A stretch of DNA of 28,858 nt from a virus (taxonomy: Duplodnaviria > Caudoviricetes), in IMG/VR virus record IMGVR_UViG_3300042207_000176, positions 1 through 28,858 of that record; one strand, 5' to 3'. Positions 6,901 through 28,435 of the stretch are shown one piece after another; the stretch's first letter is position 1, and each line of letters opens with the position of its first letter. The notes below the pieces were generated by a model. The model saw only the letters and a program-made list of their open reading frames with translations, was not told the origin of the DNA and ran no database searches. Both the position numbers and the translations under genes were made by a program.

Positions 6901-8353
6901 TTGACACCCAGTAATTGCTGATACACACCGCAATTTCGAGGCGCTGTCCGAGCGGCGGTGTAATCGTGCCGGTTTGCGAGGCGCCCGGCGCGATTACACC
7001 GCTTTGCCAATACAGGGCAAAGCTGTTCGGTGGCCAGGTTGACGACACCAGATCATCGCGCTCGGCGTCATAAGTGCGCACCGATACCTGGTATTCATAA
7101 CCTGATAGCGGGCTGGACCCGAAATAGGACCCTGCCCGCGAAAACAGCGTGATCGTAATTGGCCCGTTGACCGCATAATCGCTGCGATACACCACCCAGC
7201 GCCGACCGACCGGGGCAAAAATGCGCGTTAAAAAGCTGCTGGCTTCAAGCGGTGCCGCCGAACTGAGGGCCGAGACATATTCTTCGTCAACATCCAGCCG
7301 TTTGATATCAATCTTGGCCTCAACCGTGCGGTTCTGACGATTGCCATTATCGTCAAAATAAACCAGCCCGGTGCAGGCATAGTCAATCACCAGTTCGTCG
7401 GCCTCGCGGCTTTCAACAATCACCGGGCTTTGATTGGTAATCCTGATATTGTAGCTGTCGGTCTGCGGCTGATCGGCAAACAGGGTCGAGGGTGCATCAT
7501 CCATCCAGCCTTCGCGATATTCCAGCTCGACATTTTCAAAATTCGCCACCGGGGTTGTGCCAAAACGTGGCTCGCTAAAGCGCATTGGCCCATAGCCACA
7601 GCCCAGCGTGACGCGGGCATAGACGTCATCGCCGACATTTTCGGTATAAAATTCGGTCACCCGGGGCGGCGTGATGCGCTTGGTGCCATAAAGCTGCGGG
7701 ATCGGGCCGTATGGATCAGGGTCGTTCGCAATGCCGTCGAGCGACCAGGTCGGGCTGGCGCTGTCGCGCGCGTAATCACCACGCGCCGCCGATATATTGT
7801 TGGTCGGGGGTGGCACGATGGAATTGATCAACACATTGCCGATGGCCGTGACGGCGGCACCGGCGGCGGCACCGAGTGCGGTCGCAGCACTGGCACTCAA
7901 GCCTGCACCTTGTGCGCTCGCAGCCCATCCGGCAACGGCCCCGCCGGTATAGATTGAAACAACAATGACTGCGATGGTTAGCAAAATGCGTGCAGGGCTT
8001 TTACCACCACCGCCACCGCCACCGCGCGGTCGCAGCGTAATGGCCATCGACATGCCCGGTTTAACGCGCACACGATGCCACAGCTCGGCAGGGATCAGCA
8101 TTTGCACCCGGGATAGGCCCCAATCCCCCAGCCAGACCTGCACATCCAGCCCGCCGCGTGGGCGCGCCTGATCATCGATTAAAAGTTCGTCAATCTCGCC
8201 ACGCCCGCGCATCTCGCACAGCATTTGTGCAATGGTTTTTCCCTTTGCAGGCAAGACATATTCGACGGGCGTCGGGTTAAAAATCGACTGACCGGCAAGA
8301 ACGCGAATAGCCTGATTTTGCGGACTGTTCATCGGCAAGAGGATTTTAGACAT
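3968..8353 (-). CDS. Tail tip / host-specificity protein J-like with an N-terminal lambda gpI-like region
   Basis: About 1460 aa. Poly-Gly followed by hydrophobic helices, 'YGPIPQLYG', 'NPAW', FnIII-like segment, C-terminal H-lectin-like 'VTFNRTF...PAVTVT'. Start chosen at ATG 8353 behind GAGGG. Confidence 0.9.
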   Translation of the reverse strand: MSKILLPMNSPQNQAIRVLAGQSIFNPTPVEYVLPAKGKTIAQMLCEMRGRGEIDELLIDDQARPRGGLDVQVWLGDWGLSRVQMLIPAELWHRVRVKPGMSMAITLRPRGGGGGGGKSPARILLTIAVIVVSIYTGGAVAGWAASAQGAGLSASAATALGAAAGAAVTAIGNVLINSIVPPPTNNISAARGDYARDSASPTWSLDGIANDPDPYGPIPQLYGTKRITPPRVTEFYTENVGDDVYARVTLGCGYGPMRFSEPRFGTTPVANFENVELEYREGWMDDAPSTLFADQPQTDSYNIRITNQSPVIVESREADELVIDYACTGLVYFDDNGNRQNRTVEAKIDIKRLDVDEEYVSALSSAAPLEASSFLTRIFAPVGRRWVVYRSDYAVNGPITITLFSRAGSYFGSSPLSGYEYQVSVRTYDAERDDLVSSTWPPNSFALYWQSGVIAPGASQTGTITPPLGQRLEIAVCISNYWVSTPSGTPAKWIPNNFPAADPTWMMYDDPEISYMTSAPNIERISLSMTAASENAVRRSVRIPLPSHGRYAIRTRRLTADSDSPRVRDDLYITAVKSILHKQPISKKGIATISFRAKAGDQLQGLLDRFSVRASRLLPVYDRDTQAWDWKETKNPAWAALWCLMGEAVAQPCGVEKIDLPMWLALADFCARKPPHSDLADAIDPESEDTAYFRYSGYFRDRRAATKRAQDILSACRAQLVMVAGKYSVVWEDPDPVRVSYLGPENCLSLTRKRTFVNLPHGLRVQWRDEAENDRELIVYRDGFSAANATLFETLELEGCDGEDLAWREGRYWFAVAQLRQKTTTAIVGYEHLRFGLGSMVGVSHPVPKIGVASGRIKAVTHDEDGNVSAITLDQPVPFDGEHDYCVRIWLSKGGTAYSTVTHEAGEYVTLMLDNPVAPRDFADSDSAPTPGNYFQFGIVGYELRDMLVKNIARRDDFHALVELVDAAPEIHLADQVAIPDAEPAPTPGLAAPPGPVTDLEITEKVTRIGNETQSTLLVSWRPAEGQLVASYQVHIAMGDDSAVFYAPVIAHNITIPVELQGKQYKVWVVAVSPSGNRLAVSDSSFGTIFVSGKLAAPATPSNVKLSFASGMATIATDPQNDADKFVLTIATPVSAGASLGGTLAANQEIEFAGSATTVSVPLKGEYVFTLQAANFQGTRSEPVMRRLTQNRAWAPNAVASLAVPTAGGSFSGSIGRTDSGQIRRPSIVGAAWSDPESANDVELFNGLWDLADVPTGDLADLPVSWFVGPQLTEVAEWVSEIVDFGEDLHGVWWSDQKAEILDYSAIVNWNDVPTSVLENVDNRLLRADSAATIGVVLELGQQSDLSDATAVAGHWDGTARYGRVRVRITAQSWVIEAYASDITIHCDAPDEIDAGTGTISGTTPDTVTFNRTFAVVPAVTVTAENGDSAALVTASVSKTGFQITGTAGSKFVWHASGVKK

Positions 8354-8813
8354 GACAGCCCTCACAACCCTCAATAGAGTTAGCGAACCATTTCAGACGC
8401 TTCATCTTGGGGAGAAGATCATGCGAAAGACGCTTGCAGTATTTTGTGTACTGATGCTGACCGGCTGTGTTGGTTACGATACGCCAGAACAACTGAAAGC
8501 CTCGGTATATCATCGACAAGTGATTGTTGACGGCAATTACCAAGACATTTTTCGGTGTTACGATGTTAAAGAGCGTGTGCGTGGTAGACCCGTCACAGGT
8601 CAGATTTATTCTGAGTCCGGGTTGGCGGTAATGGACTATCTTCTCAAGCTCGTGACGGGCTTTTCGGTGCCCGGAGCCGATGGTTGGGATGGGCGAACGG
8701 AGCTGCGTAAAATTGACGCCACCCACACCAAGGTGGATGTCTGGCAGGGGAGTGAGCGCGAAGTTTCCAACGTTATTGGTGTTATTCAATCCTGTGCGGC
8801 ATCCTGAAACCAT
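8346..8813 (-). other. Candidate translational bridge ORF (155 aa) antisense to the lipoprotein gene
   Basis: ATG overlaps the NlpC stop (TGATG) behind GGGGGTGAG. TAA overlaps the J start (ATGTCTAA). The product has no recognisable family. Confidence 0.4.
8421..8807 (+). CDS. Accessory (moron) lipoprotein, 128 aa
   Basis: GGAG RBS, signal peptide MRKTLAVFCVLM with lipobox LTG-C, two further Cys in the mature part. Opposite strand to the tail operon. Confidence 0.85.
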   Translation: MRKTLAVFCVLMLTGCVGYDTPEQLKASVYHRQVIVDGNYQDIFRCYDVKERVRGRPVTGQIYSESGLAVMDYLLKLVTGFSVPGADGWDGRTELRKIDATHTKVDVWQGSEREVSNVIGVIQSCAAS

Positions 8814-9226
8814 CACTCACCCCCATAGGCATAAAAGCCCTCAATCCGGCTTTCCGGCCATGAGGGGGCGGAGAGCCGCTCACACACCACCATTCCGGCA
8901 TCGCTATCAGCGTGGATAATCAAACCATCGCCGCACACCACGCCGACATGCGAGGGCACGCCGCCGGTCAGCAGCATCACCACACAGCGATCTTGCGGCG
9001 CACCCAGCCTGCGCCACAGCGGCATTTCCCCGTTAAACAACCGGGAAATGCCGCGCACATCGCGCGGTTCGAAGGCATAATCAAGGATTGGCAATTCCCG
9101 CCCGGTTTCGGTCTTTTCCACCAGCCAGTGCAAACCGTAACAATCAACACCATCAAAACCCCGGCCCCGTTTGGCAAACCTGATCCCGACATATTTGCGC
9201 GCCCAGGCGCTAATCCCGACAATCAT
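8813..9226 (-). CDS. NlpC/P60-family tail tip protein (lambda gpK C-terminal-like)
   Basis: 'GR...GVDCYGL' catalytic Cys motif, 'HVGV' and 'IIHA'. Lies between DUF1833 and J. Confidence 0.92.
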   Translation of the reverse strand: MIVGISAWARKYVGIRFAKRGRGFDGVDCYGLHWLVEKTETGRELPILDYAFEPRDVRGISRLFNGEMPLWRRLGAPQDRCVVMLLTGGVPSHVGVVCGDGLIIHADSDAGMVVCERLSAPSWPESRIEGFYAYGGE

Positions 9227-19031: not shown

Positions 19032-19057
19032 GTCGCCCTCCGTCATGTGACAGAGGC

Positions 19058-19153
19058 ATCATGAAGGGTTCAAAGGGCGGGAATTAGCTGAAAACTTCAG
19101 GTAAATCGCCATTTTTTGCGATTTGAAGCAAGGGGAGCCTGAATTATTTCAGG
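19058..19153 (-). promoter_or_regulatory. Putative activator-dependent late promoter for the head operon (Mu PI-like)
   Basis: Palindrome CTGAA-AAC-TTCAG (19088-19100) 24 nt upstream of a CATGAT -10-like hexamer. A second palindrome CCTGAA-TTAT-TTCAGG lies at 19138-19153. Confidence 0.65.
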
Positions 19154-19418
19154 GGAGGCGTCAACAGATACAGGTCTGGTCCGGCCCGCAATGTTGTCTT
19201 GTCGCACTTCTAACGGGGGTCTAACGGCTTATGATGGGAGAACTCGCGACAACCGGACCTGACAGCCCCGTCATCGCGACAGTCGGCTAAAAATCGAACC
19301 GCTTCATTTTTTCGGGCAGGAGTGGTAAGATCAAATCTGCGGTTGCCGGAAAATCTGGTGAAATTCGTGAGCCCAGAGTGCTTGTCGGGAAATCGGCCAG
19401 TAGCAGCAAAGGCCCAAG

Positions 19419-26139: not shown

Positions 26140-26180
26140 TGGGGGCCTCAATGCAAAATACCGTTCGGTTCGTTGCAATG

Positions 26181-26223
26181 AGGGTGGCGGTTAACGCCGT
26201 CACAATTCAGCTGAAAGTTTCAG
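26181..26223 (-). promoter_or_regulatory. Putative activator-dependent late promoter for the lysis/packaging operon (Mu Plys-like)
   Basis: Palindrome CTGAAA-G-TTTCAG (26211-26223) 24 nt upstream of CACCCT, the same geometry as at 19058-19100. Confidence 0.65.
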
Positions 26224-26232
26224 GGGCAGGGC

Positions 26233-26607
26233 CTAGAAAAGCGAAGGTTGCCGGTCGTCCTGCACATTTTCCTGTTCAAGGATTTGATAAACCCGCCGTT
26301 CGGTGCATCCGGCGCGCAAAGCAATCTGCCGACGGCTGATATTCTCGGATGCGAGACGACAAATCAAGAGGCGTCTTTTCTCCCGCGATAGAATAGACAT
26401 TGGAACCTGAAGGTGGCACCCGCCAAAAACGCGTGACAGGGCATAGGCGTCATCAATGCCAATGACGCAAAGTTCATGGTCTTGCGTGATCTTTTTCGGG
26501 ATGTAAAGGACCGTGCCGGGAAAGGCTTCGACCAGGCGCATGGCCGCCCGCATCGAAACCAGTTCGGCAACGTCTTCAATCCCGTATGTCGATCCAGCAC
26601 GCGGCAT
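26233..26607 (-). CDS. Mor/C-family late transcription activator
   Basis: 'L.EAFPGT.LYIPK', 'FGG..L.VP', C-terminal HTH 'SRRQIALRAGCTERRVYQIL'. Position between gemA and lysis genes. Alternative GTG start at 26619. Confidence 0.85.
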   Translation of the reverse strand: MPRAGSTYGIEDVAELVSMRAAMRLVEAFPGTVLYIPKKITQDHELCVIGIDDAYALSRVFGGCHLQVPMSILSREKRRLLICRLASENISRRQIALRAGCTERRVYQILEQENVQDDRQPSLF

Positions 26608-26608
26608 A

Positions 26609-27040
26609 TCAGGCAGCACCTCCGTTTTTCATGCGGCGGTCCCAGTCTTTCAGGGCTTCAATCACAGGCGCGGCTTCGTCATAGGTCAGCCAGTCCAGTT
26701 GCCGCACATGGGCAAACTGGCGGGCTTTGAGGTGCTTGTTCACGAAGGCCAACAGCGCGGCATCGGTGTCGGTCGCACTAAGCGCCCCGGCCTTTTTAAG
26801 GCTGCCCCACAGCGCCCAAATCTTGCGCACATAGCCCTTCGCCGATTTCTTGAACCCCGCACGGGGGCCGTTCAGATGCGCGATAATCTGGTGCATTTCA
26901 GCGTCGGTGCATTGGCCTAGGCTGGTTTTGCCGGTGATATTTTGCACCATCGCCTCATGCGCATCCCGATCAATACCGCGTTCCTTCTCGGCAGCGCGGA
27001 TTTGGCGATTGAGCATTTGCCATTGTGGGGATTTAGGCAT
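26609..27040 (-). CDS. gemA: Mu GemA / gp16-like regulatory protein (DUF1018)
   Basis: 'ITGKTS', 'RKIWALW..L...G', 'AL.AFV', 'VIEALK.W..R'. GGAGGG RBS before ATG 27040. Confidence 0.9.
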   Translation of the reverse strand: MPKSPQWQMLNRQIRAAEKERGIDRDAHEAMVQNITGKTSLGQCTDAEMHQIIAHLNGPRAGFKKSAKGYVRKIWALWGSLKKAGALSATDTDAALLAFVNKHLKARQFAHVRQLDWLTYDEAAPVIEALKDWDRRMKNGGAA

Positions 27041-27725
27041 TGTATCCCTCCAGTGCTTTGCCGATACTCGGTTTGGTACCAAAGGTTCGTACGAGGATGG
27101 AATGCGAGAAGGTAAGTATTTTGCAGTTGTCTTGTGTACGCTGGTGACCGGATTTGGCATCGGTTTTGCTGCGGGATTGAGCGAACCAATTAAGCATGAA
27201 ATTCAGTGGGAAACTTTGCTGGCGGGTGCCGCCGCGATTATTGGTGGCTGGATGGCTTATCGAGGTGCAATGGCTCCGTTTCTGGACGAGAAGCAGAGAA
27301 TCACCGAACTCTATCTCCATACTTTTCGAGAAGAAATTAATCAATTTCTTCGTAGCACTGATGAAAAAAGTAAATCTGGAAAGCTCTGCCTGGATATGTT
27401 TCGCGCAAACAAAACTCATAGGCGTGATGATATGATCACAGCGATGGCTATGGAAATATTGACATGCATGCCTGAAATTCCAGAAAAAATAAACACTGCC
27501 CCTCTCCGGCAAAAACTGGTTAATATTCGATATCTCCTCGCGAGATTCAACCCCGAAGATCGAAAGTTTCTGGGTGATTTTCTCCCCCCAGACCCAATCG
27601 AAACAAGGAATGCAATTCTTGAATATGCAGTAATGGTCGAAAGTCTCTGTTAGTATCGATTTTGATGACGACTGCTCAAGCTGTTTCCATTTATCTGCCA
27701 ATTGGACATTCATTTCCGATGTCAT
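27033..27725 (-). other. Candidate translational bridge ORF (230 aa) antisense to the membrane-protein gene
   Basis: Strong GGAGGT RBS and ATGA overlap with the DUF2786 stop. TAA overlaps the gemA start (ATGCCTAA). The product has no recognisable family. Confidence 0.45.
27102..27653 (+). CDS. Accessory (moron) membrane protein, 183 aa
   Basis: GAGGA RBS, two N-terminal hydrophobic helices followed by a helical soluble domain. AT-rich (22/60 G+C at 27301-27360). Opposite strand to the operon. Confidence 0.8.
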   Translation: MREGKYFAVVLCTLVTGFGIGFAAGLSEPIKHEIQWETLLAGAAAIIGGWMAYRGAMAPFLDEKQRITELYLHTFREEINQFLRSTDEKSKSGKLCLDMFRANKTHRRDDMITAMAMEILTCMPEIPEKINTAPLRQKLVNIRYLLARFNPEDRKFLGDFLPPDPIETRNAILEYAVMVESLC

Positions 27726-28435
27726 GACCGGTCACCTCCACCGGTCAGCGCCTGCTGGCCCTCACCTGCAACACCCTGGCGAAAATCAACCTTGCTGCCA
27801 TCGGCCAGACCATCCACCAACGCCCCGTAATCATGGTTCCGCGCCTTGGTGCTAAGGTCTCTGCCTTTCAGGCTCTGTAAACTGTCGCCAAATTGCTTTG
27901 CCTCATAGGCTTCAATGGCTTTGGTTTCCGCCTCTGTCGCGCAATGCGATGTGACTTTTTCGGCAACCGCGCGAACCCAGCCACTGGCATACATATCGCC
28001 CCGGCGCACTTTGGTGCTGCGTTTCAGACGTTTATTCAGGCTGCCAATATAGGCCGTGCGGCTTTTTGTCAGCTGGCGCTCAAGCACTTCATAGGTATAG
28101 GCCGCGACCTTGGGGCTGGCATCAAGTCCATAAAACTCGAAACGCGCCCGCCATTTGTCACTTTGATAATAGGGGCGATATACCGTTTCGACACCGAAGG
28201 CCCGCGCCACCATATTGGCAAGTATCACGACATGCTTCGGTGGCACCCTGCCAGCACGGCTGTTCGCGGTGCTGCTGTTAACATCGCTGATCGCAACATC
28301 GTCATGGCTAACCCCGTATTTTGCCATCAGCTCCTGTGCGCGCGACAGTGCCGCAGCAGCCTCGTTCGGGTTGTCGGACTGCGCCAGCGCCAGACAGGAT
28401 TTGATTTTGCGCAGGATGTTTTCATGCTCGGCCAT
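27722..28435 (-). CDS. DUF2786-domain protein
   Basis: 'ILRKIKSCLALAQS.NPNEAAAAL.RAQELM.KY' N-terminal signature and 'A.Y.YEVL.RQL...R..Y'. Confidence 0.9.
   Translation of the reverse strand: MAEHENILRKIKSCLALAQSDNPNEAAAALSRAQELMAKYGVSHDDVAISDVNSSTANSRAGRVPPKHVVILANMVARAFGVETVYRPYYQSDKWRARFEFYGLDASPKVAAYTYEVLERQLTKSRTAYIGSLNKRLKRSTKVRRGDMYASGWVRAVAEKVTSHCATEAETKAIEAYEAKQFGDSLQSLKGRDLSTKARNHDYGALVDGLADGSKVDFRQGVAGEGQQALTGGGDRS

Follow-up and report, generated by a model that had tools for sequence, protein, structure and literature searches.

A stop-free frame opposite a backward accessory gene is likely held open by selection in a Mu-like prophage operon

An accessory gene located between DUF2786 and gemA of a Mu-like prophage points against the direction of its operon and is crossed on the operon strand by a long uninterrupted reading frame, hereafter called the bridge. 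Comparison with related loci indicates that this feature is real and that the frame is likely held open by selection, because relatives of the backward gene avoid three codons, TTA, CTA and TCA, inside phage operons but rarely elsewhere. In a codon-aligned register these three codons are read as stops on the opposite strand.

The analyzed stretch of DNA (the window) is a virus record of 28.9 kb that covers the middle and late regions of a Mu-like prophage, with nearly all genes located on the minus strand. Genes for DUF2786, gemA, a Mor/C activator, endolysin, holin, terminase, portal, head protease, capsid and tail are present, and gemA, the Mor/C activator and the Mu-type head genes follow the Mu order typical of a transposable prophage, the transposase region lying outside the window. 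A public contig, X4, is identical to the whole window with zero differences and is possibly its own source. Thalassospira prophages are the nearest relatives, as judged by DUF2786 (88-92% identical) and by the names of homologs, and the host therefore likely belongs to the genus Thalassospira. Upstream of the bridge lies the DUF2786/DUF7168 gene (27722..28435, minus strand; Pfam E 1.7e-30 and 9.8e-16). Downstream lies gemA (26609..27040, minus strand; Pfam GemA E 1.7e-18), the end of which is overlapped by the gene of a Mor/C-family transcription activator (26233..26619, minus strand; Pfam Mor E 5.2e-08; phrog_836, late transcriptional activator, E 2.8e-23). Two genes within the phage gene run of the window are oriented in the opposite direction, 27102-27653 and 8421-8807. 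The non-coding gaps at 19047-19418, 5' of the head protease gene, and at 26179-26232, 5' of the endolysin gene, share the short motif TGAA(A/G)(C/T)TTTCAGCT and are candidates for Mor/C-dependent late promoters. At the mom position of another record (G041, L073:18084-19663), a com-like gene is followed by genes for a DNA methyltransferase and a threonine-dehydratase-like protein, which perhaps form a DNA modification pair.

The bridge occupies positions 27033..27725 on the minus strand and comprises 230 codons without an internal stop, in register with the backward gene. A Shine-Dalgarno sequence, GGAGGT (27734..27739, minus strand), is positioned 8 nt 5' of its ATG within the last codons of DUF2786, and the DUF2786 stop codon (27722-27724) forms an ATGA overlap with the bridge start. 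The frame begins with 24 codons of 5' flanking sequence, covers all of the plus-strand gene 27102-27653 in exact codon register, continues through 23 codons of 3' flank and ends with a TAA at 27035-27033 inside the gemA start, ATGCCTAA. The coordinates, the Shine-Dalgarno site, both ends and the tripartite layout given in the original prediction, which had been made from the window alone, were all recovered on the sequence. The final codons of the bridge also contain a Shine-Dalgarno sequence of gemA itself, GGAGG (27047..27051, minus strand), 6 nt 5' of the gemA ATG, and the same site is found in L003, L004 and L005. A plus-strand gene is thus placed between two minus-strand genes that are directly coupled in insert-free relatives, which is the layout of a noncontiguous operon. 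Among the 24 sequencing runs listed for the stretch, none was an RNA run. A hairpin around the Shine-Dalgarno sequence of the bridge (8 pairs, -13.7 kcal/mol) was rejected as a feature, with a z score of -1.4 and no counterpart in 4/4 related junctions.

The backward gene (27102..27653, plus strand) encodes 183 amino acids, has homologs at 37-39% identity and is preceded by a GAGG at 27093..27096 (plus strand) that is likely its ribosome binding site. The protein was predicted to be all-helical (model pLDDT 89.6), with an N-terminal membrane segment indicated by hydropathy. On the basis of its homologs and the structural model, this gene is taken to encode the real protein of the locus, a member of a conserved family of membrane-anchored helical proteins. 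It matched no Pfam, PHROG or PADLOC family. Among 24 family members no Pfam family exceeded the cut-off and PADLOC gave only weak single-member hits, the protein atlas held only unnamed clusters of the family, and neither PDB nor BFVD contained a fold matching the model at E <= 0.001. Scanning with an E. coli-type consensus revealed no plus-strand promoter next to 27102 and neither a promoter nor a terminator of the gene's own, counts being near the shuffled expectation. A perfect 12-bp palindrome at window positions 27074-27085, just 5' of the gene start, is possibly an operator or part of a promoter. Morons are accessory genes with their own promoter and terminator that are located between conserved genes. 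The backward gene resembles them in base composition and in its patchy occurrence, the site being empty in L002, L006, L011 and L044 and occupied by another gene in L001, L004 and L005. It had been described as AT-rich, and although it does fall below its surroundings, the difference is modest (44.6% GC, GC3 0.41, versus ~55% GC around it).

The junctions of the bridge are older than the insert. Loci at the gemA site were compared in 10 viral sequences (found via gemA), two genomes (via DUF2786) and six sequences of the genus (via a GemA profile). Where the site is empty, in L002 (= L012), L006, L011 and L044, an identical Shine-Dalgarno sequence and ATGA run straight into gemA, and two public contigs with a near-identical DUF2786 end diverge from the window at 27721 into another gemA type. 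In front of gemA, L001, L004 and L005 carry a real gene (phrog_5671, 134-137 aa), the end of which shows the identical 8-nt overlap. Residues 10-19 of the bridge (27670..27700, minus strand) were recognized by blastn and in translations as a stub of this older gene, matching its N-terminus over 26/26 nt in L001 and with 93.5% identity over 31 nt in L005. As both the stub and the 8-nt overlap agree with the phrog_5671 gene of the relatives, these alignments show that an older coupled gene lost its body to the insert, which landed in frame and left the start stub and the gemA junction in place. The landing of a moron in frame within a pre-existing coupled gene, which had been offered as an alternative to a purpose-built bridge, is therefore how the bridge originated. 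The strong Shine-Dalgarno sequence, the ATGA and the 8-nt overlap had been counted in favor of the bridge. They are present in insert-free relatives or in the older gene and therefore provide no evidence of a designed bridge; as inheritances from the DUF2786 end and the older gene, they were rejected as such. The junction does match that of a second bridge before gene J, as had been noticed, but this likeness arises because both downstream genes start with ATG-NNT-AAA. Exact coupling at the 3' end is dispensable, as the bridge of L003 stops 30 nt early and that of G038 about 80-100 nt early. In L002 (3971-4001) a gemA lacking its usual start is linked to the DUF2786 ATGA by an extension of 10 codons, a miniature of the joining by bridges. 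A zinc-finger-like CxxC..CxxC stub begins the bridges over three different inserts (L003:3248-3379, L007:3274-3396 and L055:17403-17519), downstream of two different genes, and may represent a portable entry piece.

The backward gene of the window contains none of the codons TTA, CTA and TCA among its 20 leucine and five serine codons. The probability of this is ~0.09 under the phage's own codon usage and ~0.001 under that of family members located outside operons, and the open flanks of the bridge add ~0.06. A fully open antisense frame also occurs in 3/31 core genes of the window. A crude base-composition null (P 3e-5 to 2e-3 for the single gene) was set aside because it ignores codon bias. 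The single locus is thus suggestive, and the case for selection rests on comparison.

A profile of six homologs was searched against contigs of viruses and metagenomes and against 37 genomes of the genus and yielded 25 genes, counted without the five duplicates L019, L020, L022, L033 and L042 and without P0002, P0003 and P0005, for which there was no nucleotide sequence, and including one member added by hand. With a grouping that was set from genomic context after the counts had been seen, and in which the neighbors of L030 had no PHROG match, nine of the 11 copies inside prophage or satellite gene runs were stop-free in the antisense register, versus one of 14 elsewhere (Fisher p 2.4e-4); leaving out the hand-added member, the former count is 8/10. 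TTA, CTA and TCA occur 0, 0 and 0 times in the stop-free group and 45, 39 and 20 times in the outside group. The other 11 codons ending in A are used to a similar extent inside and outside (GTA 0.17 vs 0.22, ACA 0.35 vs 0.33, CCA 0.34 vs 0.31), and the remaining two antisense frames hold 2-17 stops each. On a weakly resolved tree, with synonymous sites saturated, the zero state requires 10 changes for 10 zero rows; it was not inherited as a block. With nulls chosen as generously as possible, 0.75-1.0 of the 11 genes are expected to be stop-free, compared to the nine observed, and the probability of nine or more is 7e-10 under core-phage codon usage and 5e-9 under that of outside copies with high GC3. 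The GC3 of the stop-free genes is only 0.40-0.59 and outside copies of equal GC3 carry stops, so that GC3 and avoidance of A-ending codons do not account for the openness.

Several members of the family deserve separate mention. L040a and L040b lie backward between same-strand phage genes with three and 18 stops, have no bridge and are followed by an antirepressor gene; eight promoter-like sites are located behind them, compared to 4.8 expected. The same prophage has a third unbridged AT-rich backward gene (L052 613-1302) with 14 stops. Each of these three genes of G013 (L051:17531-18919 and L052:613-1302) is followed by an antirepressor-like or endonuclease-like gene, and they possibly mark transcription-unit boundaries. 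The one stop-free copy in the outside group, L041, has no visible operon around it. A further member found later, in G045, is stop-free and bridged. Divergent members (L024, L025, L026, L035 and L036) occupy one chromosomal spot in several genomes beside a pyrC-like gene, presumably encoding dihydroorotase, which suggests an insertion hotspot. Three others (L057:9684-10553, L058 and L059, from G030, G037 and G014) are located beside HicB-like genes near mnmA and have 1-3 antisense stops; in G030 the frame starts on the HicB-like stop, is broken once and restarts 16 nt later. The frames of these three may be decaying bridges of satellite remnants.

Homologous inserts precede gemA in L003, L007 and L023. 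They are 28-47% identical to each other and to the gene of the window, with saturated synonymous sites. Each is crossed by an open in-register frame. This frame starts in an ATGA overlap in every case, with both the stub and the upstream gene being different. The frames of L007, ending in ATGTATAA, and of L023, ending in TGATG, are joined at both ends, and that of L003 ends at the distance given above. In L021, a decayed remnant in which the gemA start reads ACG, the frame contains two stops. Orthologous loci thus do not contradict the original prediction, as 3/3 intact prophages with the insert keep the frame and the one decayed remnant does not. The second bridge of the window comprises 156 codons (8346..8816, minus strand), starts with a GTGA on the stop of an NlpC/P60 gene and ends with ATGTCTAA in the start of J. 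Below it lies a lipoprotein-like backward accessory gene of 128 aa (8421..8807, plus strand), which has 0 TTA, CTA or TCA codons and is under purifying selection in its own frame. At the J site the frame is open and joined at both ends in 6/6 relatives, which carry two insert types that are 33-41% identical (156 vs 139 codons). Of the proposal that selection keeps the operon continuously translated, one part is borne out: an open in-register frame recurs well beyond chance at the gemA and J sites over diverged or unrelated inserts and is mostly lost off operons. The part that relied on the junctions is not.

A blind survey with a simple amino-acid-based gene caller, covering the window and eight related prophage records, gave 32 minor-strand calls. 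Fifteen of these were set aside, namely seven on the repressor side (3-10 stops), six at record ends (one with 0 stops) and two that are false or doubtful (G041 36530, the antisense of a real methylase, with 0 stops, and G044 13515 with three). Nine of the ten backward genes in mid-operon positions were stop-free, compared to 34/222 ordinary genes of 100-300 aa, although the survey rows overlap the family set and share ancestry, and the four J-site rows represent two insert types. The tenth gene (87 aa, one stop) is spanned by a pair of consecutive ORFs, separated by 20 nt and joined to both neighbors. None of the seven backward genes at likely promoter boundaries was stop-free, neither the four before the head protease gene (1, 2, 2 and 7 stops) nor the three near the right end (5, 7 and 9 stops). 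These promoter positions were taken from phage Mu, whose late promoters include PI and Pmom according to the relevant part of PMC2582627. New transcripts would start at both places, and cover would therefore not be needed there. This boundary control is blurred by a backward gene before the protease gene of G043, which is accompanied by an open frame of 279 codons in another register.

Longer frames occur elsewhere in the genus, where other prophages have single frames of 518, 635 and 1132 codons spanning two, three and four tandem backward genes, and in the longest of them 542 codons outside the backward genes are still open. As these frames were picked for their length, they serve as illustration and not as a test. 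The frame of 1132 codons is located in a P4-like satellite (G020, L053:15384-18782) and runs in one register over four backward genes, including a HicB-like gene and its HicA-sized neighbor; its 5' start inside an Ogr-like gene is uncertain. Replication operons of lambdoid type in G013 (L052:3525-5432) and G019 (L049:13951-18893) contain three or four backward genes, all free of TTA, CTA and TCA, with bridges joined to primase or methylase genes.

The protein encoded by the bridge resembles no family, in agreement with the original prediction. Its one match in Pfam, DUF6756, stayed below the threshold (E 0.006, 17 bits, cut-off 27) and was rejected as an identity; no family was found in PHROGs, and a homolog search gave 0/90 candidates at E <= 0.001. 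At the gemA site the identity between bridges is 13-26%, compared to 28-47% between the backward genes below them. In three close pairs from the J site the dS of the insert (0.44-0.63) is not below that of the neighboring NlpC/P60 gene (0.29-0.48), and the residues of the bridge therefore appear to change freely. The composition is that of antisense translation, with 3.5-6.1% cysteine, 6.6-9.1% phenylalanine and 4-5% alanine versus 0.6, 3.8 and 10.8% in core proteins. Purifying selection on both frames, by which overlapping protein genes are recognized, was not seen, as bridge identity is lower and synonymous sites are unslowed. Since its sequence is unconserved, the open frame rather than the product likely matters, and the product likely has no function of its own.

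The explanation that we favor, and hold to be rather probable, is that the open frame was selected as ribosome cover, which would keep transcripts from terminating too early, probably through Rho, ahead of gemA and the Mor/C activator. Ribosomes finishing DUF2786 would restart at the ATGA, run through the bridge and cover about 600 otherwise untranslated bases across the backward gene. The resulting protein would be junk and the benefit would be that the operon is transcribed without a break in the lytic phase; in the lysogen, the backward gene would be expressed from a promoter of its own. Use of the in-register frame would be explained by the fact that synonymous changes alone clear the stops there. 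The selected trait would be an open frame that reaches both neighbors, and small gaps, at most some tens of bases, would be tolerated. As described in part of PMC12360218, internal sites are shielded from Rho by translating ribosomes, and the targets of Rho include antisense and AT-rich foreign DNA. The rho gene was present in 5/5 genomes of the host genus searched, and the last third of the window's bridge is C-rich, with a skew of up to 0.46 versus 0.19 for the 95th percentile of the operon. This C-over-G skew is absent in 5/11 bridges examined (three of L049, and those of L052 and L055), and the Rho step is therefore the weakest of the explanation. Since gemA has its own Shine-Dalgarno sequence, it may not need coupling.

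The same frame could also be selected and translated for another benefit, such as the delivery of ribosomes to the gemA start, protection of the RNA from decay or from pairing with the RNA of the backward gene, or polymerase collisions that silence the backward gene at induction. All codon statistics fit these possibilities equally well, most bridges end in a true stop-start overlap, the C-rich skew is missing in the bridges named above, and antisense suppression has been shown for tha-1/ith-1 in a phage noncontiguous operon, as reported in a section of PMC11087260. Covering nevertheless fits better than delivery, given the 30 nt and about 80-100 nt by which the bridges of L003 and G038 fall short of the next start and the Shine-Dalgarno sequence of gemA itself. 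Taken together, we regard these other benefits as rather unlikely.

It is much less likely that the bridge encodes a working protein as a true overlapping gene, for example a protein that inhibits the backward product or serves as a second factor of exclusion. Such arrangements do exist. In the Mu-like phage Fc02, the overlapping genes 10 and olg1 lie on opposite strands and each confers exclusion (PMC9936078, in part), Ith inhibits Tha (PMC11087260, in part), and some bridges (L003, L007, L055) begin with the CxxC..CxxC stub. The bridges are, however, less conserved than the genes below them, and synonymous sites of the backward genes are unslowed. Their N-terminal stubs vary by locus, their composition is of the antisense type, homologs are lacking and their lengths range from 139 to 1132 codons. 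Slightly less credit still is given to a shadow ORF with inherited junctions, open by codon bias or chance and not selected. This would agree with the P of ~0.09 under phage usage, with the 3/31 window genes and 34/222 surveyed genes that are open by chance, and with the inherited Shine-Dalgarno sequence, ATGA and 8-nt overlap. It does not agree with nine stop-free genes where 0.75-1.0 of 11 are expected at a GC3 of only 0.40-0.59, with the stops in copies of equal GC3 outside operons, with the small effect on other A-ending codons or with 542 open non-coding codons in one bridge. The family contrast, the nulls and the blind survey have already largely refuted it.

Ribosome cover at the gemA site may be one instance of a general insertion rule for temperate phages and satellites of bacteria that couple transcription and translation, a generalization to which we assign an even chance. 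According to this rule, a backward accessory gene could persist in an operon only after codon editing that rids the opposite strand of stops. The translated but meaningless bridge would carry ribosomes and polymerase across and replace an antiterminator protein, the loss of TTA, CTA and TCA would map transcription units, and translated random proteins of up to 1,100 residues would be supplied. If true, this constitutes a new selection pressure on synonymous codons, by which the codon choice of a gene is set by the operon on the opposite strand, and a sequence mark for the beginnings and ends of phage transcription units. It would explain a class of long 'hypothetical' ORFs, possibly called in place of a real accessory or defence gene, would provide a route to new genes, and suggests that cargo could be placed backward in engineered phage operons without polar effects. 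The full-text literature, with most subscription papers and supplements outside the scope of the search, yielded no account of stop-free coupled frames across backward genes in phage operons, and the accessible part of PMC8410138 contained nothing on antisense stop avoidance.

Among known systems, phage morons share with the backward gene an atypical GC content, the absence from close relatives and the insertion between conserved genes, but here the host operon constrains the opposite strand. In satellite phage P4 (eta/kil), translation of eta prevents termination, as described in part of PMC10111431. P4 eta is a same-strand nested gene over the region of the CI immunity RNA and, in that account, a single evolved switch; unlike the bridge, it does not lie opposite a protein gene and reflects no recurring rule for inserts. 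In the Mu-like Pseudomonas phage Fc02, a transposable phage, gene 10 and olg1 likewise overlap fully in antisense within the early operon. Each of the two yields a product that confers superinfection exclusion, and no covering role is proposed in the parts of PMC9936078 consulted, whereas the operon-strand product of the bridge shows no constraint. In ambigrammatic narnaviruses a codon-aligned reverse frame is kept open by avoidance of UUA, CUA and UCA, and according to portions of 10.1101/761890 and PMC8316113 the reverse product has no homologs and translation itself was proposed as the function. These are eukaryotic RNA viruses whose reverse ORF extends over the whole segment and is proposed to protect the viral RNA. 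The bridge shares the avoidance of TTA, CTA and TCA beyond codon bias, but neither the RNA genome nor a reverse ORF over nearly the whole segment: it is local, resides in operons of DNA phages, is joined to its neighbors and is gained or lost with the gene context. It thus works like ambigrammatic coding and is not a member of it. The closest layout is that of the noncontiguous operons of Staphylococcus aureus and phage 80alpha (PMC11034616 and PMC11087260, both in part), in which an opposite-strand gene is likewise located between two co-oriented operon genes, also in temperate phages. In the sections available, the region opposite the antisense gene is called untranslated, whereas here it is a full-length open frame that is likely selected, in an alphaproteobacterial phage. 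How transcription persists across the long untranslated stretch of such operons has been an open problem explained for Gram-positive bacteria only, where read-through is attributed to uncoupled 'runaway' transcription (PMC11034616, in part). The bridge would answer this question for proteobacterial phages. To the noncontiguous operon with proposed translational cover, this locus adds a contrast within one gene family and a control at promoter boundaries.
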